From Escherichia coli (GTDB lineage: Bacteria; Pseudomonadota; Gammaproteobacteria; Enterobacterales; Enterobacteriaceae), in the NCBI RefSeq assembly GCF_003018255.1, contig NZ_CP027440.1: a stretch of DNA of 64,000 nucleotides; one strand, written 5' to 3'. This document shows positions 11,251 through 63,244 of this stretch, piece after piece. Numbering within the stretch: the stretch's first letter is position 1; each line of letters starts with the position of its first letter. A program made the position numbers and the translations under genes. Below the pieces are notes generated by a model, which was not told where the DNA came from, did not search any database, and worked only from the letters and a program-made list of their open reading frames with translations.

Positions 11251-11337
11251 AAATCCCGACCCTGAGGGGGTCGGGATGAAACTTGCTTAAGCAAGAAGCA
11301 CTTAAAAAATTCGTTACACCAGGAAATCTGATGTGTT
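11251..11337 (-). ncRNA. dsrA: DsrA small regulatory RNA (Hfq-dependent; regulates rpoS and hns)
   Basis: The minus strand reads AACACATCAGATTTCCTGGTGTAACGAATTTTTTAAGTGCTTCTTGCTTAAGCAAGTTTCATCCCGACCCCCTCAGGGTCGGGATTT, ending in a terminator hairpin plus U-tract; matches DsrA as I remember it. Confidence 0.85.
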
Positions 11338-19526: not shown

Positions 19527-19737
19527 GACTCAATCATTTTTTGAACAAATAGATAAATTTTGCGCAACGGCGGTGAATACAGGAAAATTCGATTTGAACG
19601 ATGTTATTTATCTTTGATTTCGGCTTTATTAATTCACTCAATCAATATATTGGCACTGATTACAATTATACCTTTTTATTTTTCTGTGTCATCATGCCTC
19701 CGTTATTAGCCTTTTATCGTCTTGTTTATATTTTTTT

Positions 19738-19762
19738 GGCCGGCATGATGCCGGCTTTTTTT
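19738..19762. terminator. GC hairpin ggccggcat/atgccggcc flanked by A/T runs on both sides (bidirectional intrinsic terminator signature) in the yedR-yedS intergenic region
   Basis: Read directly; no transcribed unit assigned. Confidence 0.4.
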
Positions 19763-39627: not shown

Positions 39628-41394
39628 ATGAACACCACACTGACACCCGCAGATCTCGATCCCCGTCGGCAGGCCATGCTGCTGTACTTTCAGGGATACC
39701 GCGTAGCCCGCATTGCTGAAATGCTGGGCGAGAAAGTTGCAACCGTTCACAGCTGGAAAAAACGCGACAAGTGGGGTGACTATGGGCCGCTGGATCAGAT
39801 GCAGCTCACCACCGCCGCACGCTACTGCCAGCTCATCATGAAGGAGCACAAAGAAGGGAAAGATTTCAAAGAGATTGACCTGCTGGCGCGCCAGTCTGAG
39901 CGCCACGCGCGGATCGGCAAGTTTAACAATGGCGGCAACGAATCCGACTTAAACCCTAACGTCGCCAACCGCAACAAAGGCCCACGCCGTCAGCCGGAAA
40001 AGAATGTTTTCACCGATGAGCAGATTGAGAAGCTGGAAGAAATCTTCCATTCCTCCATGTTCAACTACCAGCGCCACTGGTGGGAAGCCGGAAAAACCAA
40101 CCGCATCCGCAACCTGCTGAAGTCACGCCAGATCGGCGCGACCTTTTACTTTGCCCGTGAAGCCCTGATTGACGCCCTACTGACCGGACGTAACCAGATT
40201 TTCCTTTCCGCCAGCAAGGCACAGGCCCACGTCTTTAAGCAGTACATCATCGACTTCGCCAAAGAAGTGGAGGTGGAGTTGAAAGGCGATCCGATGGTGC
40301 TTCCTAACGGGGCCACGCTTTACTTCCTCGGCACCAATGCCCGCACGGCCCAGAGTTATCACGGCAACCTGTATCTGGATGAATATTTCTGGATACCGAA
40401 ATTCCAGGAGCTGCGCAAAGTGGCTTCCGGTATGGCTATTCACAAGAAATGGCGACAAACCTATTTTTCCACGCCATCCAGCCTGACACACAGTGCTTAT
40501 CCGTTCTGGTCCGGTGCGCTATTCAACCGTGGGCGCAACAAAGCAGATAAGGTGGACATCGACCTGTCCCACAGCAATCTGGCCCCCGGCCTGCTGTGCG
40601 CAGACGGGCAATACCGCCAGATTGTCACCGTGGAAGATGCAGTGCGCGGCGGATGTAACCTGTTCGACCTCGATCAGTTACGCATGGAGTACAGCCCGGA
40701 CGAATACCAGAACCTGCTGATGTGCGAGTTTGTGGACGATCTCGCGTCTGTGTTCCCACTCAGCGAGCTGCAGGCGTGCATGGTGGACAGCTGGGAAGTC
40801 TGGACCGACTTTCATGCACTGGCACTGCGCCCATTTGGCTGGCGCGAAGTGTGGATCGGTTATGACCCTGCGAAAGGTACGCAGAACGGCGACAGTGCCG
40901 GATGCGTGGTGGTGGCACCGCCAGCCGTGCCGGGCGGCAAGTTCCGCATTCTTGAGCGTCACCAGTGGCGCGGGATGGACTTTCGCGCCCAGGCTGACGC
41001 CATCAAAAAACTGACCGAACAGTACAACGTGACCTATATCGGCATCGACTCAACCGGCGTTGGTCACGGGGTTTATGAGAACGTGAAAGCGTTCTTTCCT
41101 GCCGTCCGGGAGTTTGTCTACAACCCCAACGTTAAAAACGCCCTGGTACTCAAGGCCTACGACATTATCAGCCACCGCCGTCTGGAGTTTGACGCCGGGC
41201 ACACCGACATTGCGCAGTCATTCATGGCAATCCGTCGCGCCACCACCGCCAGTGGCAACCGCCCGACCTATGAAGCCAGCCGCAGCGAAGAAGCCAGCCA
41301 CGCCGATCTGGCCTGGGCAACGATGCACGCACTGTTTAACGAACCGCTGCAGGGCGAATCCGCCAATACCAGCAATATTGTGGAGATTTTTTGA
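39628..41394 (+). CDS. P: Terminase large (ATPase) subunit P (588 aa)
   Basis: Walker A-like motif LLKSRQIGAT and matching size; followed by portal. Confidence 0.9.
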   Translation: MNTTLTPADLDPRRQAMLLYFQGYRVARIAEMLGEKVATVHSWKKRDKWGDYGPLDQMQLTTAARYCQLIMKEHKEGKDFKEIDLLARQSERHARIGKFNNGGNESDLNPNVANRNKGPRRQPEKNVFTDEQIEKLEEIFHSSMFNYQRHWWEAGKTNRIRNLLKSRQIGATFYFAREALIDALLTGRNQIFLSASKAQAHVFKQYIIDFAKEVEVELKGDPMVLPNGATLYFLGTNARTAQSYHGNLYLDEYFWIPKFQELRKVASGMAIHKKWRQTYFSTPSSLTHSAYPFWSGALFNRGRNKADKVDIDLSHSNLAPGLLCADGQYRQIVTVEDAVRGGCNLFDLDQLRMEYSPDEYQNLLMCEFVDDLASVFPLSELQACMVDSWEVWTDFHALALRPFGWREVWIGYDPAKGTQNGDSAGCVVVAPPAVPGGKFRILERHQWRGMDFRAQADAIKKLTEQYNVTYIGIDSTGVGHGVYENVKAFFPAVREFVYNPNVKNALVLKAYDIISHRRLEFDAGHTDIAQSFMAIRRATTASGNRPTYEASRSEEASHADLAWATMHALFNEPLQGESANTSNIVEIF

Positions 41395-42419
41395 TGGGAA
41401 AGAGTAAGAAGAACCGCGCTGCGGCGACGAAACAGATCCAGCTTAAAAGTCAAACTACAGCCGAAGCATTCAGCTTCGGCGATCCCGTTCCTGTTCTGGA
41501 CCGCCGAGAATTACTGGACTATGTGGAATGCGTACAGATGGACCGTTGGTATGAGCCGCCCGTCAGCTTTGACGGACTGGCGCGCACCTTCCGCGCTGCA
41601 GTGCATCACAGTTCCCCGATTGCAGTAAAGTGCAACATTCTGACCAGTACCTACATCCCTCACCCGCTGCTCAGCCAGCAGGCTTTTTCACGTTTTGTGC
41701 AGGACTATCTGGTATTTGGTAACGCCTACCTGGAGAAACGCACGAACCGATTCGGTGAAGTTATCGCCCTTGAGCCTGCGCTGGCAAAATACACCCGACG
41801 CGGGTTAGACCTGGATACCTACTGGTTTGTGCAATACGGCATGACTACACAGCCGTATCAGTTCACGAAAGGCAGCATTTTTCACCTGATGGAACCGGAT
41901 ATCAACCAGGAGATCTACGGCCTGCCCGGTTATCTTTCTGCCATTCCGTCAGCCCTGCTCAACGAGTCCGCCACGCTGTTCCGCCGGAAGTATTACATTA
42001 ACGGTAGTCATGCAGGCTTCATCATGTACATGACCGATGCCGCGCAGAACCAGGAGGATGTGAACAACCTCCGCAATGCGATGAAAAGCGCCAAAGGCCC
42101 TGGCAACTTCCGCAATCTGTTTATGTACTCGCCTAACGGCAAAAAGGACGGACTTCAGATTATCCCGTTGTCAGAAGTCGCAGCGAAGGATGAGTTTCTG
42201 AATATCAAAAATGTTAGTCGCGATGACATGATGGCAGCACACCGCGTGCCGCCACAGATGATGGGGATAATGCCAAATAATGTCGGGGGGTTTGGGGATG
42301 TGGAAAAAGCGAGTTTAGTGTTTGTGAGGAACGAATTAATACCCTTACAGAAAAGGATGCAGGAATTAAATAAATGGCTTGAAGATAATATATTACAATT
42401 CAAACCATATAAATTTTAA
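41391..42419 (+). CDS. Q: Portal protein Q (342 aa)
   Basis: Size and order; 3' end faces cos. Confidence 0.9.
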   Translation: MMGKSKKNRAAATKQIQLKSQTTAEAFSFGDPVPVLDRRELLDYVECVQMDRWYEPPVSFDGLARTFRAAVHHSSPIAVKCNILTSTYIPHPLLSQQAFSRFVQDYLVFGNAYLEKRTNRFGEVIALEPALAKYTRRGLDLDTYWFVQYGMTTQPYQFTKGSIFHLMEPDINQEIYGLPGYLSAIPSALLNESATLFRRKYYINGSHAGFIMYMTDAAQNQEDVNNLRNAMKSAKGPGNFRNLFMYSPNGKKDGLQIIPLSEVAAKDEFLNIKNVSRDDMMAAHRVPPQMMGIMPNNVGGFGDVEKASLVFVRNELIPLQKRMQELNKWLEDNILQFKPYKF

Positions 42420-42460: not shown

Positions 42461-44428
<1,968 letters not shown>

Positions 44429-44458
44429 GTATTTTGCCTATTTTAGGTGATAGCGCGC

Positions 44459-44481
44459 GCTCGTATCCCCGCCACGCCTGC
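44459..44481. other. Probable cos site (cohesive-end sequence)
   Basis: The minus strand reads GGCGTGGCGGGGATACGAG, resembling the P2/186 19-nt cohesive end (GGCG(A/T)GGCGGGGAAAGCA...) as I recall it. Confidence 0.5.
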
Positions 44482-44520
44482 CCGCTTTATGTAGTGGTTT
44501 TCATGCACCTGCATGATCTA

Positions 44521-44547
44521 CGCAAAAGCCCGCCAGTTCTGGCGGGC
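44521..44547 (-). terminator. Rho-independent terminator ending the tum/DinI-like operon
   Basis: 9-bp GC stem gcccgccag/ctggcgggc with a 2-nt loop, followed on the minus strand by TTTTG. Confidence 0.75.
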
Positions 44548-44682
44548 CTTAGCAAAAACGATCCTCAAACGATCATGCGATCTCATGCGGCATAGACATG
44601 CACTACAGAGCTAACGCCTCGCAAGGGCTCGTTGTTCAACCTTGCTGACGCCAGAAACAAGTTCAGACGCCAGCAACGTTTC

Positions 44683-44916
44683 TTAATGCAGCCAGCTGTC
44701 GTCTTCCCACACCTTTTGCATAATTTTCATCACTTGCTTCCTTTCTTCGTCCAGTTGCAGTCCTGTCAGTTCCACACCGTTAGAGCTACCTTTACGGATA
44801 CGAATTACCGTTTTGGGATACAGGGGGCGCAGATTGCGGTAAAGCTCGGATTCAAGGGCGTCCAGGGTAGACTGGCTAATCTTCTGCTCTTTATCGATCA
44901 TTATTTCAATGCGCAT
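44683..44916 (-). CDS. DinI-family protein (78 aa), resembling the C-terminal part of a 186 Tum-type SOS antirepressor
   Basis: ORF 44683..44988; start set to MRIEIMIDKEQ..., which parallels the DinI N-terminus (MRIEVTIAK...). Confidence 0.7.
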   Translation of the reverse strand: MRIEIMIDKEQKISQSTLDALESELYRNLRPLYPKTVIRIRKGSSNGVELTGLQLDEERKQVMKIMQKVWEDDSWLH

Positions 44917-44926
44917 AAAAGTCACC

Positions 44927-45115
44927 TCAGCTGATGACATCCATTGAGCGGTTGTATTCGTGGGTTCTGATTTTTGCCATGAGTTCATCTGTCAGTTCAG
45001 AAACCCACTGCAGAGCCAGCCCCTTCTCTTCATCACTACACTCACTAGCCGCTACAAGCTTAAGAAAAAAATCAATGCGCTGGAGCTTCAAAGACTCCAA
45101 AAAATAGTCCTGCAT
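44927..45115 (-). CDS. Small protein (62 aa), first gene of the LexA-boxed operon; possibly the N-terminal part of a Tum-like antirepressor
   Basis: ORF 44927..45217; start set to MQDYFLESL...; stop lies ~10 nt before the DinI-like start. Confidence 0.5.
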   Translation of the reverse strand: MQDYFLESLKLQRIDFFLKLVAASECSDEEKGLALQWVSELTDELMAKIRTHEYNRSMDVIS

Positions 45116-45156
45116 CTTTCCTCCTATGACACCACACGCAATACTGTATGTATAAC

Positions 45157-45176
45157 CACTGTTTATATTTACAGTA
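45157..45176. promoter_or_regulatory. LexA (SOS) box CACTGTTTATATTTACAGTA
   Basis: Perfect CTGT-N8-ACAG with AT-rich spacer, ~40 bp upstream of the small ORF; a second partial TACTGTATGT half-site is adjacent. Confidence 0.75.
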
Positions 45177-45268
45177 TATAATAATCTTACTGATGTAAAA
45201 CGTTTTTTTACATTCATCAGCCTGATATGCCTGGTATTATTAAGAGCACGAATTGTTAACCCGCGTAA

Positions 45269-47710
45269 TTAATACAGGTTCCGCCACTGATCATCTTCCT
45301 GCAAACGCTGGTTCCGATAGAAGATACGCAGGCCTGCTCCTGACGGAATACTGCCTCCGCGAAGGAGTAAATCGACCTCTTTCTCGCTGCCATCAAATCC
45401 TCTGGACTTCAGCTCATACACGAGCTGCAGTCGCTGATGGTCTGTAATTCGCTGTTTGTAGTCTTTACGCCGTTTCGGTTTCACCAGGCGTAACCTTGCA
45501 GCCAGTTCCCGGCGCTCTTTTTTGCTCATACTGTGCAGGTAATCGTGCAACTCCTTGTCATCCATGCGGGTAATGTCCGTTCTGGTATCCCCATCAGCTG
45601 ATTTGTCTTTCCCTTGTTGGTTCAAATTTTCAGCAAGGGGACAGTTATTGCCACGAGTCCAAGGGGCGCAAGCGCCCTGGTCGGCTGCCGCCTCCTGAAC
45701 GTCAACGGCCTTACGAACCATTTTCCACTTCACTGCATGAGTGCAGATCTTGCCCTCTGCAATGGGTGACCAGATGCCATAAATACGAATACCGTGATCA
45801 CCATAGGCGGTCGGCTCTTCGTTGATTTCATAAGCGGTTCTGATCAAGTGATATTTGCGGGGAACCAGTACGCCGCCCTGCTTCATAATGTAGGTGGCAA
45901 AACAGCCAGCATCAGCAGCAGCCAGAATGGCATCAAGGCGCGGGTTATCCAGTACCGACGCACCTGCTTTTTTGTCACCCTGTTGCCTTGCCGCCTGACC
46001 AGCCAGCAATCGCAGTTCACGGTAAGCCTGACGCCCCGGAATGCCAAAGAAGCGGAATTGCTGAACACGATGCAGAGACGCCCAGGCATTAACGTATTCA
46101 GCATTATCACGCAGGGATTTACCCGTTTCCTTGCTGATCTCGCCAGCCAGACCACGCCCGTCAATGTTCTTACTGATGTATTTCGCGATGTAGCTTGTTG
46201 GCGTACCTTTGCGCGGGTTTATCAGCTCAGACTTAAAGCGTGGCCCCGTGTTATTACCCAGCTCCTCGCGGTCTTCACGAATGGCAAACTTACGCAGCAA
46301 AGCAGTAATGGCGCGGCGATCTTTTTTGCGCATGAAACACAACAGGTGCCAGTGAACTGTGCCGTCATGATGCGGCTCAGCCACCCGCACGCCATACCAG
46401 CGCAACCCGGTTTTGTGCATAGCCTTACGAAATGCAGCAAACATGCCGACCAGATAATCGCTGCTTTGTCTTACCGTCGCGTTTGTCCAGGTCGGGTTTG
46501 GTCTGCCGTTATTGAGCGTGGAATGGAAACGCGACGGACAGGTGATGGTGTAGAAAACGGCACAGTCACTGCGCATTTCCGCGATAAGCTCCAGACCTTT
46601 AACACAGGCCATCATCTCATTGCGGCGATGCGCCGGGTTGCTGCTGCTGGCCTTTACCACATCTTCCATATCCAGCGTGTCGCCGTTTTCGTTCACCAGT
46701 TCATGAGAACGGAAAAACTCCAGCGACTTACGGCGCTGCTCACGTTTATGCATCACGGCTTCATAGCTGACATAGGGAGATGCTTTTTTGCTGACCAGGC
46801 AGACAGCACGCAACTGCTCTTCCCGCCATTCGCAGCGCATCTTCCATAATTTCCGATACCACCAGTCGGCACACAACATACGCGCCAGCGAACCCGGAAT
46901 GAGTTCATAGGGCACGGGTTTGCGACGCTTTCTTTTCCGACGAAGTTGCTCAAACGCAGGCGGGATAACATCCAGTCGCAGGGTTTCCGCTGCCACCTTT
47001 TCCCATGTCTTGCGGATTTCTTCTGGCTTAACATCATCGGTGGCGTACAAATCACCACAAGCGGCATCAAGGCACATGCTCATATGCGCAGCTACCAGGG
47101 TGGACAGGCGTTTCACCTGATCCTGACTCATTTCAGGCAGGATCAGCAGGCCGTCCAGCCCTTCATGGCTCGCCATAAAGCGAAAAGAAGTGGATAGCTG
47201 ACTGTCGCGTACATGCTCCAGCCGTTCCAGACATGGCTTAATCGTCTCACGCAAATAGCGAGAATAAGCCTTTGGCCTGCCCAGGCTGCTGAAGTATTCA
47301 ATACGTTGCATCAGCGGCTTGCTGATATGGGAAGGCTGGGCGTTAACGTCCGCCAGAATGACCATGTCCGGATTAAAACGCTGCTGCTCATGCGCCAGCT
47401 TTGCCCGGCTAATGAGCTTATCCTGCTCCATTTCGCGTTGGACAGGATCACGGGATTCATTAAAGAAATAACGCTCCCAGACCTGATCACTCAGTGCCTC
47501 GCGGCGCAGTTGTTCCTGCTCGTTATCGGCAGCGTACAGAGTGATCAGGTTTGAAAGCGCAGAAACCGGCGCAACTTCCGCCGGGTCCAGATAAGGGTTA
47601 ATGGCTTTCTTAGGTAAATTCCACGAATAACCCCCGGCAGAATTCTCAATGCTACCGGAAGTTACACTGACAAATGGATCGGCAAGACGGCCTGTGCTGA
47701 TCTCTGTCAC
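45269..47710 (-). CDS. A: Replication initiation protein (P2 gpA / 186 RepA family rolling-circle initiator, 813 aa)
   Basis: Size, position and paired catalytic tyrosines (...YIAKYISKN...). Confidence 0.88.
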
Positions 47711-48717
47711 TCACAGACTCCTGCATATACACTGCTGCACACCGCTTTATCATTCATGCCTGCCAGCAGGTCAAACTGCATACCGCCCCGAGTTGTTAAG
47801 GCCCAGTCCCGATAAGTTTCAATGCCATAAGCATCAACAGTTATGACTTCGATCCGTTTTTCATCACGGCGCGGATCATGCGTGGATGGAAAGAACGTTG
47901 AATTGCCACGTCTTGAACATTCCGCAACCAGTCTTTCCCACTCAGCCACTCGGCGGATTTCTTCTGGCCAGCGTTGGAAAATCTCAGCAAGTTCTGACTT
48001 GCGAGCATGAATACATGGCATACAACCGACACGACTGCATCCCTGCATATAAAGGGGGTTAGGCTTAATGCCATGACGTTTGGCAATAGCAAACACATCC
48101 TCATGCAGCCAATTAAGGATCGGACGATAAACATGCAGGCCCAGAGTATTGTCTGCATCGTCCTCCCACTCAGGCAACAATGCACGTTCCGGTGATTCCT
48201 GCCCCCGGACTCCTTGCCAGCTGATTACCTCATCGTATTCATCCAGAGCCGGATCGATTACCTGTGTACGTATTGGTTCATGTTTTAGTTCAAAAGTGCA
48301 GAAACGAGCTTTTGTTGAAGGGAAGCGACCTTTCCACATGCACAAATCAAGAAACGGAACGCCGGTTGGTTTAAGGATTTCCAGTGCCCGGTAAATACGT
48401 TCCTCAGCCTCATCTGTCGACATACCACATTCCTCAACGAGAGAAATGGGCCACTTTTCCGCAATGAATTTACGTTTCCCTTCTATCTGGCGTGTGAAAT
48501 CCGCTTTGACGCGAATAATCTTGCCCAGCTTTGATTCCAGATAATCCAGATATTCTATTGTCTGTGGATGTTCATGACCCGTATCGGCAAATACAGAAAT
48601 ATGCGGAACATCGTTTTCAATGGCTCTTAACCATTGAGCGAGACTATCTTTGCCACCAGAAGTAGTGATGATGTTAATGGTGCTTGAAGCAAAGCAACGC
48701 GGATCGATAGCATTCAT
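47707..48717 (-). CDS. PP-loop ATP pyrophosphatase, PAPS-reductase-like (336 aa)
   Basis: PP-loop motif TTSGGKDS near the N-terminus; Cys-rich C-terminal part; translationally coupled to dam upstream and A downstream. Confidence 0.75.
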
Positions 48718-49562
48718 GCGCGTACCTCAACGGTACGGTCAGAGCCGCTGGCAAAATCGACACCAAACCACCCAGCTGATTTGGTGGCAATGATTTCTGT
48801 TGCAGATTTACTCTCGCCAGCTGACACGCCAATGCTGCGTTTTGACTTGATGTAGTGGTGAGTGAAATTGCGATACAGCGAACGGATCAGGGATGTGTCA
48901 CTGTTAGAAACAATGACCGGATGACCTTCAGATGATCGATGTTCAAGAACGGATGCCAGGTGATACTGGTCATCTTCAGTGAAGCCATCAGTGTGATAGC
49001 CGGAAAACGTACCGTCATAAGGCGGATCGCAATATACCACATCCCCCACCTTCAACATCGCCAGCGTTTCATCAAAGCTGGCGCAGATAAACGTTGCCCG
49101 CTGGGCTTTCTCTGCAAATGCGCGAATTTCTTTTTCAGGGAAATACGGATTTTTATAATTACCGTAGGGAATGTTGAAATACCCGCTCTTGTTATAGCGA
49201 CATAGCCCACGGTAACCATGACGATTGAGATACAGAAAATATACCGCTTTCATGAAATCAGTAATTTCAGTGGAGTAATTAAACTCCTGCCTTATGTTGT
49301 AATAAGCCACCTCTCTGTTTGCTTCCTCAAATAAAGCTCTGGCACGAGATATAAACGCCTCACAATCAGCAGCAACCTTTTTATAGAGGTTGATTAAATC
49401 AGGATTAATATCCGCAACCAGATAGCTGGGGTAATCCGTCTCCATCATCACAGCACAAGAACCCGCGAAAGGTTCAACCAGTCGCGGGCCAGCAGGAAGG
49501 TATTTTTTCAGTTCGGACATAATGGCGGTTTTATTACCCGCCCATTTCAGGATGGTGCTCAT
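48714..49562 (-). CDS. dam: DNA adenine methyltransferase (Dam-type, D12 class)
   Basis: [11 protein letters not shown]-binding start and DPPY catalytic motif; start set to [11 protein letters not shown]. Confidence 0.9.
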
Positions 49563-49861
49563 ACAGCACCTCCTGCAATAACATATCCTAAAGCTTCTAA
49601 TGGGGTTAATGAGCGAATTGATAGCATCACCCATTGTTCTGAAACTGCCATGACGTCATTAACCGGAAGCACATGAGAGATAACCGCGGCCCATTCCCTA
49701 CCCGTAAATACGCCATGCTTCCATTCGCAAAGAGAAAGAACATCACCAACTTTATAGCCACGATCGTCTTTACGAAGTTCAGCCGTCTTTTGACCTGCAA
49801 CCACAGCGTTGAAATACTTAGGTGCAATTTTTAATTGATGGATACGCACAGCCCCTGTCAT
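49559..49861 (-). CDS. ASCH-like small protein (~100 aa)
   Basis: ORF 49559..49921 with start set to [11 protein letters not shown]...; fold assignment is from memory of similar phage proteins only. Confidence 0.5.
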
Positions 49862-51148: not shown

Positions 51149-51658
51149 TCACAGCAAACCGAATGAAGCACCGAGGCCAGTCACGGTATCAACTGCACTC
51201 GCCATCGCAGGATTAGCCTGTAAACGGGCCTGCAATGAAACAGCCGCCAGCGCCATCAGTCGTGTTACAGAGTTAATGCTGCTGATAGCATCACGACGAC
51301 CTGCACTGGTTTTTACATCGCCAGATACCGCACCTGCCGCGACACGTCCTATCTCTGCAGTTGCACTCATGACGTAATGCGGCAGTTTCTCTTTTGCTAC
51401 CTCATTAATCGGTACACATGGCAGGCAGTGAATCTGTGCCAGAAAACCATCTACCAGCGTTGAATCTTCAGTCAGATCGGTAAGCAACCAAATTTCTGGT
51501 GCGGTTAATAAATGAGGTTGAGCTGGGTTCAGTTTGTTCCGCAGAATCTGCACATTCATGCCTGCACGTTCTGCCAGTTGCACCAGATTGTGGCGCAGTG
51601 CGAATGCACGACAGGCTTCATCAAAATGTGGATGTTTGGAAACTTGGTAATCAAACAT
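51149..51658 (-). CDS. cII: CII-like transcriptional activator (phage 186 CII family)
   Basis: Close resemblance to 186 CII as I recall it ([10 protein letters not shown]...[26 protein letters not shown]...). Confidence 0.8.
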
Positions 51659-51722
51659 GGTTTTCAACTCCGAACTTATCGCAAAATCGAACTCAGCGTC
51701 TTATTGCGAAAATAGACGTCTA

Positions 51723-51926
51723 TTAAGCAGACAAAGCATCAACAGTCAGAGCAGCCAGGTTAATCATTACCTTTTCACGTTTTTTGTCTTTACGAAGACG
51801 ATGACGAGGTAGTCGGCCATCAGCCAACATGTCGTTAATCGTATCAATAGAAAGGCCAGTCAGTTCGCTATAACGTTCGATTGTGACATGTGGTGTATTC
51901 AGAGTAATTGAAATGTTAGGTGTCAT
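51723..51926 (-). CDS. apl: Apl/Cox-like excisionase and transcriptional regulator (67 aa)
   Basis: Small HTH protein, first gene of the lytic operon, divergent from cI. Confidence 0.65.
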
Positions 51927-52071
51927 AAGGCAACATTCCTTCTAGATATGGCTTGTGGCGAGCCGTTGTTTGTCGTGATTAGTAGTGAAGGCTCCAAAAG
52001 AACACTTCTGGTTCAACTTTAAGATCTCTTTTGGAATCTGTCAACGAATTTTGGATTTCTTTGGAGGACTT
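51927..52071. promoter_or_regulatory. Lysis-lysogeny switch region between apl and cI (pR/pL and operators expected here)
   Basis: Position only, by analogy with 186; no operator sites were resolved. Confidence 0.4.
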
Positions 52072-52641
52072 GTGGATTTCAATAGCGGCGGTAAGAAAGC
52101 CATAGAACGTTTAGTTGAAGCATATGGGTTCGGTACCCGTCAGGCTCTCTGTGATCATTTAGGTGTTTCTAAGAGCACCATGGCAACGCGCTATATGCGT
52201 GATATTTTTCCAGCAGATTGGGTAATCCAGTGCGCCCTTGAAACGGGCACCTCGCTTAATTGGCTAACAACAGGGCATGGTTCAAAGCAAGCATCAGCAA
52301 ATACAAATACTATGGAAGTTGCTAAATATGTATTATCTGATGGGGCCTTGTGTGAAGACGGTTTTTATATTTTCGATAGGGAATTTCTACCGTCGGCATT
52401 CAAGAATATTTTTGCAATCACAGATAATAATTCTGAATTTGTTTGTGATAAGGAATTTGATGATATACGTGATGGTAAATGGGTAATAAGTATTGATGGC
52501 GAAATAACGATCCGTGACATTACTCGTTTACCCGGTGGAAGAATCTTCGTCGAGGGTGGAAACAGAGCCTTCGAATGCAAGATAGAAGACATTGAAATAA
52601 TTGGTAAAATTATAAGTTTAACAGTCAAGTATGTTAAATAG
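52072..52641 (+). CDS. cI: CI-type immunity repressor (186 CI-like, ~189 aa)
   Basis: ORF 51985..52641; start reassigned to a GTG preceded by GGAGGA; HTH region [29 protein letters not shown]. Confidence 0.75.
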
Positions 52642-52657
52642 TACCGGGAGGAAAACT

Positions 52658-52849
52658 ATGCTTGGTAAGGTATTTTTTGTGGTTTTGTCATGTTCTTTGT
52701 TATTAAACCCACTAACTACCTATGCTAGAAATTATCCCTGTTCAGGGAAAAAGGGAGGTGTTTCTCACTGTACCTCAGATGGCAAATTTGTTTGCAATGA
52801 TGGAACTATTAGTAAATCCAAAAAAATCTGTACTAAAAACTCACGATAA
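52658..52849 (+). CDS. Small secreted cysteine-containing protein (63 aa precursor), cargo between cI and int
   Basis: RBS GGGAGGAAAA; signal peptide [23 protein letters not shown] with an AxA-like cleavage site; mature part has 4 Cys. Confidence 0.5.
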
Positions 52850-53037
52850 CTTTTGCTTTTATATCTGCGCCTAAAATAAAAATGAGCCGCAGGTTAACCG
52901 CAAAAATTACATGCTCACATAGCAAAAAGAATAGCCAACTTAATTATGGCTTCAGTGAGATGTATGGTCGTAGGATTTCATACATTGACACTGGTTATAC
53001 ATACAGTGAAAATGCTCTCTACTGGAGGGCATTTTTT

Positions 53038-54081
53038 ATGGCAGTACGAAAACTAACCACAGGGAAATGGCTTTGCGAATGTTACCCCGCCGGACGCAGC
53101 GGGCGTCGCGTGCGTAAACAGTTCGCTACCAAAGGCGAAGCATTAGCTTTTGAGCGTCACACGATGGAGGAGGCAGAAGCTAAGCCTTGGCTTGGTGAAT
53201 CGGTAGACCGTCGAACTCTACAGGATATCGTTGAACTCTGGTTCAAACTGCACGGCAAATCCCTGACCGCTGGCGAGCATGTTTACGACAAGTTGATACT
53301 GATGGTCGATGCTCTCGGAAATCCCCTCGCCACCGATCTAACATCCAAAATGTTCGCGCACTATCGCGATAAGCGCCTGACGGGTGAAATCTACTTCAGC
53401 GAAAAATGGAAGAAAGGAGCCAGCCCGGTAACTATCAATCTGGAGCAAAGCTATCTGAGTGGGGTCTTTAGCGAGTTAGCCCGACTCGGTGAATGGACAG
53501 CACCAAATCCACTGGAGAACATGCGTAAATTCACCATTGCCGAAAAAGAAATGGCCTGGCTGACACATGAACAAATCACAGAGCTTCTGTTCGACTGTCA
53601 ACGCCAAAGCCCCCTGCTCGCTCTTGTCGTCAAAATCTGCTTGAGCACCGGAGCACGTTGGCGCGAAGCTGTGAACCTGACACGTTCTCAGGTCACGAAA
53701 TACCGAATCACATTTGTCAGAACTAAGGGCAAAAAAAACCGCAGCATTCCGATCAGCAAAGAGCTGTATGAGGAAATTGTTGCCCTAGACGGCTTCAAAT
53801 TATTTACTGACTGCTACTTCCAGTTTTTAGCCGTGATGGATAGAACCTCGATCGTACTACCACGCGGGCAACTTACCCACGTTCTACGCCATACGTTCGC
53901 AGCACATTTTATGATGTCCGGCGGGAACATTCTTGCTTTGCAAAAAATCCTGGGCCACCACGATATAAAAATGACTATGCGCTATGCACATCTTGCCCCT
54001 GATCACCTTGAAACAGCACTGCGTTTCAATCCATTAGCCACACTTTCCACTAAAGCAACGAACCTTGAAGCAAACAGCTAA
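53038..54081 (+). CDS. int: Tyrosine integrase (P2/186 family)
   Basis: ORF 52882..54081 trimmed to MAVRKLTTGKWLCECYPAG...; C-terminal catalytic region HVLRHTFAAHF...MRYAHL. Confidence 0.9.
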   Translation: MAVRKLTTGKWLCECYPAGRSGRRVRKQFATKGEALAFERHTMEEAEAKPWLGESVDRRTLQDIVELWFKLHGKSLTAGEHVYDKLILMVDALGNPLATDLTSKMFAHYRDKRLTGEIYFSEKWKKGASPVTINLEQSYLSGVFSELARLGEWTAPNPLENMRKFTIAEKEMAWLTHEQITELLFDCQRQSPLLALVVKICLSTGARWREAVNLTRSQVTKYRITFVRTKGKKNRSIPISKELYEEIVALDGFKLFTDCYFQFLAVMDRTSIVLPRGQLTHVLRHTFAAHFMMSGGNILALQKILGHHDIKMTMRYAHLAPDHLETALRFNPLATLSTKATNLEANS

Positions 54082-63154: not shown

Positions 63155-63244
63155 TGGCGGAGAGAGGGGGATTTGAACCCCCGGTAGAGTTGCCCCTACT
63201 CCGGTTTTCGAGACCGGTCCGTTCAGCCGCTCCGGCATCTCTCC
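63155..63244 (-). tRNA. serU: tRNA-Ser (anticodon CGA; serU-like), 90 nt including CCA
   Basis: The minus strand reads GGAGAGATGCCGGAGCGGCTGAACGGACCGGTCTCGAAAACCGGAGTAGGGGCAACTCTACCGGGGGTTCAAATCCCCCTCTCTCCGCCA, with a long variable arm. Confidence 0.9.

Follow-up and report, generated by a model that had tools for sequence, protein, structure and literature searches.

In the analysed stretch of Escherichia coli DNA (64,000 nucleotides, here called the window), replication gene A and cos flank a minus-strand operon. With high probability, this is the module through which the SOS response induces a 186/Fels-2-type prophage, and it has the two genes, tumA and tumB, that such modules usually have. 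The anatomy of this operon, its homologies, its conservation and the purifying selection acting on it were observed directly on the window operon and its relatives. The system as such is already known: it is the ordinary DNA-damage switch of a prophage of this type. Since the mechanism is textbook knowledge in the case of phage 186, and earlier authors have pointed it out in Fels-2, PSP3 and SopEPhi, the window adds no new principle. What it does add is modest: the split form is the rule, some phages carry tumA alone, the Fels-2-type promoter has an operator doubled in a colicin-like manner, and one and the same TumA is found together with many types of CI C-terminal part.

The operon times the exit, after DNA damage, of prophages that are very common in E. 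coli, Salmonella and Klebsiella, and this damage includes that caused by antibiotics and by gut inflammation. Because these prophages carry cargo (the retron in the window, sopE in SopEPhi), the module also sets how easily this cargo spreads.

The operon and its prophage

The original prediction described a LexA box, two ORFs and a terminator next to cos. These elements are all present and this observation is therefore confirmed, apart from the length of the second ORF: the 62 residues given for the first one are correct, the second one has 77 residues and not 78, which is its number of codons including the stop. The features of the locus are the following.

SOS operon as a whole: minus strand, flanked by replication gene A and cos, in a prophage of 186 type
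47710..45269, minus strand: replication gene A (replicase), directly 5' of the operon
About 45220-45190: weak A+T-rich hairpin, read downward from gene A, before the -35 hexamer
45194..45199, minus strand: -35-like hexamer TTTACA, read from the sequence; predicted equivalent of that of 186 p95
45171..45176, minus strand: putative -10 hexamer TACTGT, placed after the model of 186 p95 and identical with the six leading nt of LexA box 1
45157..45176, minus strand: LexA box 1, TACTGTAAATATAAACAGTG (plus-strand reading CACTGTTTATATTTACAGTA)
45142..45161, minus strand: LexA box 2, CAGTGGTTATACATACAGTA, of the form GTG-N10-CAG, overlapping box 1
5' of the 62-aa ORF: Shine-Dalgarno sequence AGGAGGA
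44927..45115, minus strand: tumA (ORF1), 62 aa, predicted helical hairpin, probable CI antirepressor
44683..44916, minus strand: tumB (ORF2), 77 aa, DinI family
44642..44676, minus strand: 11-bp hairpin without U-tract, from RNA folding, just 3' of the tumB stop
44521..44550, minus strand: intrinsic terminator, AAGGCCCGCCA-GAAC-TGGCGGGCTTTT, an 11-bp G+C-rich hairpin followed by UUUU
44460..44478, minus strand: cos cohesive end, GGCGTGGCGGGGATACGAG, by likeness to 186 cos
42461-44221: reverse transcriptase of retron Ec67/Eco2 (PADLOC RT-Toprim_I-C, E=1.5e-216)
51667..51149: cII homologue, part of the 186-type switch
51926..51723: apl (Apl/Cox-like), part of the 186-type switch
51985..52641, plus strand: cI, 186-type immunity repressor, presumed target of TumA
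52882-54081: integrase (int)

The genes cI, apl, cII and int together span 51149-54081 and represent a switch of 186 type. The CI protein can be aligned with its counterparts in 186, Fels-2 and SopEPhi, and the real start of its gene probably lies near 52060. The prophage also encodes Dam and P2-type structural genes. The operon is thus flanked by gene A and cos in a P2/186-like prophage equipped with a 186-type CI/Apl/CII switch, and the surrounding element is a 186/Fels-2-type (Peduoviridae) prophage. The parallel drawn earlier with the LexA-regulated tum gene of 186 holds for the map position, for the layout of p95 and its LexA site and for the two homologous halves of the gene product.

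Putative promoter and LexA operator

A scan for sigma-70 and terminator consensus sequences called neither the SOS promoter nor the main terminator. For this reason the SOS promoter is a putative one, placed by analogy with p95 of 186, and the main terminator was placed by RNA folding. The spacer between TTTACA and TACTGT amounts to 17 nt. Another possible -10 hexamer, TATACT, is located at 45178..45173 with a spacer of 15 nt.

The near-consensus LexA box reported in front of the operon proved to be sound. Box 1 agrees with the LexA consensus at 17 of 20 positions; this 20-mer is the sole match to TACTGTATATATATACAGTA with three or fewer mismatches in the window, and no such match occurred in 100 shuffles. 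Its core, CTGT-N8-ACAG, also occurs only once in the 64 kb, but 0.8 occurrences are expected by chance, so that the core alone is not significant. A CTGT-N8-ACAG box is located just 5' of a tumA-like gene in all nine phages compared, with divergent flanks. In the window, the box overlaps the putative promoter and has the -10 hexamer inside it.

The box at 45157-45176 is not the only one. A second box, at 45161..45142, overlaps it and was missed in the original prediction, which knew a single box. Taken as 16-mers, the two boxes (CTGTAAATATAAACAG and GTGGTTATACATACAG) have one G in common, at 45159, and GTG replaces CTG in the left half of box 2, as in colicin operators. The Fels-2-type group shows the same succession of a LexA box and a second box, CTGTAAATATAAACAG followed by TGGTTATACATACAG. 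With two 16-nt SOS boxes (CTG-N10-CAG) overlapping by one base, the operator reads as a colicin-type pair of overlapping LexA boxes. The double core is retained in 76 of 80 related loci. Among 43 distinct operator variants, the core triplets are altered zero to two times, whereas two central spacer positions of box 2 vary in 29 and 17 of the 43. Variation is therefore mainly confined to the central spacer of box 2, which is the pattern expected of a real LexA site.

When a 56-nt stretch carrying the double operator was used as a query against plasmids, about 790 mostly small plasmids matched with some 85% identity across some 42 nt. Two of these matches were inspected; one is situated directly 5' of a pore-forming colicin gene, the other directly 5' of a tRNase colicin gene. 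Colicin operators resemble the window operator in their arrangement, CTG-N10-CAG continued by TG-N10-CAG with one shared G (for example ACTGTATATAAAACCAGTGGTTATATGTACAGTATT), but have CCAG where box 1 of the window has ACAG. They also control a toxin, whereas the window operator would control a prophage antirepressor. The colicin box pair binds two LexA dimers and blocks untimely expression (PMC2994835). Phages 186, PSP3, ESSI2_ev040 and vB_YenM_06.16-2 (a Yersinia enterocolitica phage), in contrast, have a single box nearer to the start codon. By analogy with related phages, the window operon would be under the control of LexA.

The two gene products

TumA is identical to STM2728 of Fels-2 at 61 of 62 positions. 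Pairwise BLASTP of ORF1 against 186 Tum gave no match. The relationship was detected by profiles: hhalign of the Fels-2-type family against the family of the 186 Tum N-terminal half returned 96.5% probability (E=8e-10, columns 2-44), and an HMM of family representatives found residues 6-44 of 186 Tum at 26.4 bits and a Yersinia 'tum protein' at 35.8 bits. The nine-phage alignment has the common pattern ...R[IV]..[IF]..[LM].A...C...[DE][KR].[LIV]A[LI].[WL][IV][AS][ED][LI]. Homology of ORF1 to the N-terminal half of 186 Tum is hence supported by profiles and alignment, with pairwise BLASTP negative. For the TumA of PSP3 type, hhalign gave 90% against 186 (E=1.6e-6) and 11%, in the same register, when compared directly with TumA of the Fels-2 type; the homology between the TumA proteins of the window and of PSP3 is therefore only transitive, via 186.

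In the AlphaFold2 model, TumA is predicted as a two-helix hairpin (pLDDT 90.3), with the nearly invariant Cys26 located in the turn. A sequence search of the PDB found no relative of TumA, Foldseek with the model returned generic helical hairpins alone (E above 1), and PADLOC had no model covering either TumA or TumB.

The attribution of the second ORF to the DinI family was borne out. TumB matches Pfam DinI (PF06183) over profile positions 1-63 of 63 with E=6.6e-23 and 81.3 bits, far above the curated cut-off of 24.2, and aligns over its full length (residues 1-75) with E. coli DinI (1GHH_A, E=2.7e-6). It is identical to STM2726.1 of Fels-2 (77/77), 78% identical to TumB of PSP3 and 41% identical to the C-terminal half of 186 Tum (E=3e-24). 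As a member of this family, TumB would be expected to bind RecA filaments and to modulate their co-protease activity, and it is best read as a RecA-filament modulator in the manner of DinI. The record of 186 states that truncated Tum 'modulates SOS induction', and database records name the DinI-like product 'SOS induction modulator'.

Proposed mechanism and known relatives

LexA control, the antirepressor activity and its assignment to the upstream gene are taken over from the literature on relatives, and we infer from them each functional step in the window prophage. In the undamaged cell, LexA would occupy the double operator over the -10 hexamer and the transcription start and keep the operon silent. 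Upon DNA damage, RecA would become active, LexA would cleave itself and the operon would be transcribed. TumA would then bind the CI protein of the prophage and remove it from its operators, whereby the early lytic promoter would be derepressed and the prophage induced. TumB, made from the same mRNA, probably binds RecA filaments and would tune strength or duration of the SOS signal. Translation of the two genes is probably coupled, because the tumA stop is located within the ribosome-binding site of tumB. The strong terminator would close the transcript before cos.

Essentially the same operon as in the window is present in Fels-2 of Salmonella LT2 (STM2728/STM2726.1), and SopEPhi has it as orf10 and orf11, whose products show 89% identity to TumA and 88% to TumB of the window. 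Promoter, double LexA operator, junction and the map order A - operon - cos are alike in both phages. Fels-2 differs from the window prophage in its CI and in the cargo after cos, which is retron Ec67/Eco2 in the window. A passage in PMC9827884, which cites Diard et al. 2017, ascribes the induction of SopEPhi in the inflamed gut to SOS-driven expression of Tum.

PSP3 has a 60-aa tumA and a 77-aa DinI gene, tumB, between A and cos, with a LexA box 5' of them. In its record, tumA is described as 'similar to 5' end 186 tum; UV induction of prophage' and tumB as 'similar to dinI and 3' end of 186 tum'. Its TumA is, however, only about 20% identical to that of the window, its one LexA box is 20 nt from the start codon and its intergenic gap is 3 nt.

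In 186, p95 is repressed by LexA and its -10 hexamer consists of the first six bases of the LexA site, at an equal map position. Of the two halves of 186 Tum, the N-terminal one is homologous to TumA and the C-terminal one resembles DinI. As stated in the original prediction, Tum is a single protein in this phage (146 aa in the 186 record); it contains in-frame internal starts, the last of which (GTG) leads to a free DinI-like product of 76 aa. Also unlike the window, 186 makes do with one LexA box and carries an additional gene, orf97, before cos. The target of 186 Tum is a CI of 186 type (PMC7708051). Binding to CI, blocking of its operator binding and a need for the protein in induction by UV or mitomycin are known for 186 Tum and have been reported for tumA of PSP3 (PMC3121763, PMC7708051).

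Another likeness is found in the LexA-controlled dinI-gfoA/gftA operons of Gifsy-1, -2 and -3 of Salmonella, which also combine a DinI homologue with a small antirepressor acting against a non-cleavable repressor (PMC3121763). There the order is reversed, with dinI first, and the prophages are lambdoid with an unrelated repressor family.

Which of the two proteins is the antirepressor?

The DinI-like protein had been singled out as the antirepressor candidate in the title of the original prediction. The evidence points to its neighbour instead, and by analogy with the relatives the antirepressor is most likely the 62-aa TumA. PMC3121763, in the part that deals with PSP3, locates the antirepressor activity in the upstream gene, on the basis of a personal communication relayed via Bunny et al. 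2002, and describes the downstream gene as a DinI homologue. Lemire et al. 2011 (PMC3121763) noted that Tum resembles a fusion of an antirepressor with DinI. In the Gifsy phages the dinI homologue is dispensable for induction and the small neighbouring gene is sufficient (PMC3121763).

We consider it very unlikely that, conversely, ORF2 is the antirepressor and ORF1 an accessory or leader peptide. Such an attribution would agree with the DinI-like half being the sole recognisable domain of 186 Tum and with the label 'SOS induction modulator' in the records, but it does not fit the literature just cited, nor two phage lineages, ESSI2_ev040 and vB_YenM_06.16-2, that have a LexA box and a tumA-like gene without any dinI-like gene. 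The distribution of sequence identity argues in the same direction. Between PSP3 and the Fels-2-type phages TumB is 78-94% identical, whereas TumA is 17-20% identical. Because TumB stays nearly constant across phages in which CI and TumA differ greatly, it is unlikely to be repressor-specific.

TumA, CI and the retron

With TumA as the probable antirepressor, the question arises how well it fits the CI protein of its own prophage. The CI proteins of the window and of Fels-2 share 45% identity (69% when the N-terminal part is taken by itself, 26% for the C-terminal part), while the TumA proteins are 98% identical. The fit between TumA and CI of the window is thus an assumption, given that the CI proteins are only 45% identical. 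Over nine phages, identity in the TumA core follows identity in the N-terminal helix-turn-helix part of CI (Mantel r=0.95, p=1e-4) much more closely than that of the C-terminal part (r=0.53); the Spearman coefficients are 0.86 and 0.20 for N- and C-terminal part. Among 80 loci with a TumA identical to that of the window, 42 distinct CI proteins were counted. Their N-terminal parts are 69-100% identical, whereas their C-terminal parts fall into at least 10 types with 27-47% identity.

These data are compatible with TumA recognising the N-terminal domain of CI, with one allele cross-inducing co-resident 186/Fels-2-like prophages and with the double operator setting a high, late threshold. We put this forward as a tentative proposal that has a real, though minority, chance of being right. 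If it were true, a single TumA allele could inactivate CI proteins with many unrelated C-terminal (oligomerisation) domains, and prophages of different immunity could be cross-induced by a single SOS-induced TumA. The covariation might be read as evidence for co-evolution of TumA with the N-terminal part of CI, but we give it less weight: in 80 IMG/VR loci the genes from cII to tumB, gene A included, form a single conserved block (nucleotide identity 90-96%), and it is in apl/cI that the mosaic boundary is located. As the block from cII to tumB is inherited together, linkage alone can explain the covariation.

The same observations bear on whether the operon, although regulated by SOS, might mainly serve the host or the cargo, by damping RecA or by read-through into the retron, with a TumA mismatched to CI and no induction of the prophage. 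The divergence of the C-terminal part of CI from that of Fels-2 in the face of a nearly identical TumA, the coexistence of one TumA allele with at least 10 types of this part, and a retron lying downstream in the same orientation would be in line with such a role. We nevertheless judge it very improbable. All CI proteins that accompany this TumA have an N-terminal, DNA-binding part with 69-100% identity, purifying selection on tumA is strong, and a strong terminator and cos stand between tumB and the retron. The retron itself sits in the position for cargo, with cos on one side and the portal gene on the other, and only about 2% of the loci sharing the operon contain the retron segment, which argues that the operon has not evolved for the benefit of the retron.

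We keep to the induction of the prophage as the probable function of the operon. The suggestion that SOS also controls the region just upstream of the retron is correct in a trivial sense, the operon being this very region. It does not extend to the retron. Searches of the 64-kb window with the core and with the 20-mer found no second, separate LexA box that could serve the retron, and in view of this result, of the intervening terminator and cos and of the co-occurrence of about 2%, SOS control of the retron is not supported.

Two genes rather than a broken tum

The original prediction left two options for the split, a natural two-gene variant or a frameshifted tum. Several lines of evidence speak for the first. 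The tumA stop, TGA at 44929..44927, is followed by a gap of 10 nt and the ATG of tumB. It falls within the tumB Shine-Dalgarno sequence (TGAGGTGA), 10 nt 5' of this ATG, and each ORF has a Shine-Dalgarno sequence and an ATG of its own. A single frame as in 186 is not found here, the two halves being parted by the stop and the gap. The junction, TGAGGTGAC(T/C)TTTATG, is the same in 79 of 80 IMG/VR loci, the 80th being one base off, and tumB is intact in 79 of the 80.

Free-standing homologues are abundant. For the 62-aa ORF, 484 homologue clusters were found across Enterobacterales; the best 120 of these 484 comprise proteins of 55-109 aa, none with a DinI part, those at the upper end of the range owing their length to start codons called further upstream. 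When 1.84 billion representative proteins were searched with a profile, 99 clusters came up; almost all measure 45-100 aa, and a full DinI domain is absent from every one of them. The PSP3-type TumA family counts 208 clusters, and nearly all of the best 120 have 60-61 aa. Even among the 120 clusters closest to the N-terminal half of 186 Tum itself, 110 are free-standing and 10 are joined to a DinI-like part.

Between diverged pairs, with dS up to 1 or more, dN/dS was 0.07-0.12 for tumA, typically about 0.08, and 0.03-0.10 for tumB; it was not raised in three near-identical pairs. Both ORFs are under strong purifying selection, and both accordingly present themselves as functional genes. The operon was found in 1143 of 5426 complete E. 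coli genomes. Together with the free-standing clusters, the low dN/dS and the conserved junction, this frequency marks the fused Tum of 186 as the exception, and the two-gene tumA-tumB form appears as the normal state rather than a broken copy of tum. Lemire et al. 2011 (PMC3121763) had likewise noted that tum is divided by a stop codon in Fels-2 and PSP3. In two phylogeny papers on P2-like phages tum goes unmentioned.

That the two ORFs are a frameshifted or nonsense-disrupted single tum, hence a pseudogene in a prophage that has lost its SOS inducibility, is hardly credible: the one 146-aa protein of 186 and the stop codon plus 10 nt in the window would allow for it, but the hundreds of free-standing homologues, the low dN/dS of both genes, their separate start signals, the junction conserved over 80 loci, the annotated tumA/tumB pair of PSP3 and the small share of fusions even near the 186 N-terminal half all contradict it, and the frameshift reading is refuted as far as sequence evidence reaches.

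Transcript end and cos

The strong terminator described beside cos is real in terms of predicted RNA structure. The fold of 44505-44690 has z=-4.0, with none of 200 shuffles equally stable, and the terminator ends 43 nt before cos. The hairpin at 44642..44676 might be a partial terminator or an RNA stabiliser; in 186 the corresponding position is taken by a partial terminator, t95a. A search of 44100-45300 with Rfam found no RNA family and thus no msr of a retron either. The annotated 19-nt cos of 186 is GGCGTGGCGGGGAAAGCAT, as compared with GGCGTGGCGGGGATACGAG in the window; the first 13 nt and one later position match, 14 of 19 in total. The sequence on the left flank of cos is also conserved at the right ends of 186 and PSP3.

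The probable antirepressor and the repressor

The antirepressor module occurs without a DinI partner, as two phages show. Both Escherichia phage ESSI2_ev040 (8453-8713) and Yersinia phage vB_YenM_06.16-2 (6950-7132) carry a LexA box together with a tumA-like gene, and the dinI-like gene downstream is absent. Some relatives, among them Klebsiella phages (matches H17-H30) and E. coli genomes (H85-H86), carry about 720-820 bp of inserted DNA within the stretch that corresponds to window 44400-45300. The annotation of one E. coli genome places an HNH endonuclease under the match. The profile search also returned P0279, a large protein of 1205 aa with an NTPase-like region at its N-terminus, in which 10 separate stretches match TumA profile positions 14-49 (E=6e-12). 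These stretches may constitute a helical repeat resembling the hairpin, or may be spurious.

The cI gene (window 51985-52641, + strand), coding for the presumed target of TumA, is a mosaic. Identity to Fels-2 and SopEPhi is 69-72% in the N-terminal HTH part but only 26-29% in the C-terminal part. Among loci with identical TumA, at least ten CI C-terminal types were found. The annotated GTG start of cI is probably too far upstream, the true start likely lying near 52060. Between cI and int lies a further small ORF:

52631-52849, + strand: ORF of 72 aa with several cysteines and a signal-peptide-like N-terminus

This ORF is a possible lysogenic-conversion 'moron'; at the equivalent place PSP3 has a DUF2511 gene.

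Variable segments and the cos side

Two segments of the prophage, one in the early operon and one beside cos, are rare among the related loci:

47707-48717, - strand: ORF of 336 aa, overlapping the ends of dam and replicase A
42461-44221, - strand, plus 44221-44460: reverse transcriptase of retron Ec67/Eco2 (RT-Toprim_I-C in PADLOC, E=1.5e-216)

Since only about 7% of related loci carry the segment with the 336-aa ORF, it is a variable insert; the rest of the early operon is conserved. In 186 the matching position, upstream of A, is occupied by orf84, a 'phosphoadenosine phosphosulfate reductase' gene. The retron occupies a cargo site flanked by cos and the portal gene (41391-42419), and its segment was present in only about 2% of the 42 related loci sharing tumAB. 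No Rfam match to msr/msd was obtained within window 44100-45300.

Near cos, between the hairpin that follows tumB and the terminator, there is a cluster of Dam sites:

44556-44585, - strand: three GATC sites spanning about 30 nt

The prophage also has a Dam methylase gene of its own (48714-49634).

RNA genes and prophage boundary

Rfam identified two host sRNA genes and a tRNA:

11251-11337, - strand: sRNA DsrA
19673-19762, + strand: sRNA RseX
63158-63244, - strand: a tRNA

The prophage appears to start shortly past rseX, about 20.5 kb into the window.
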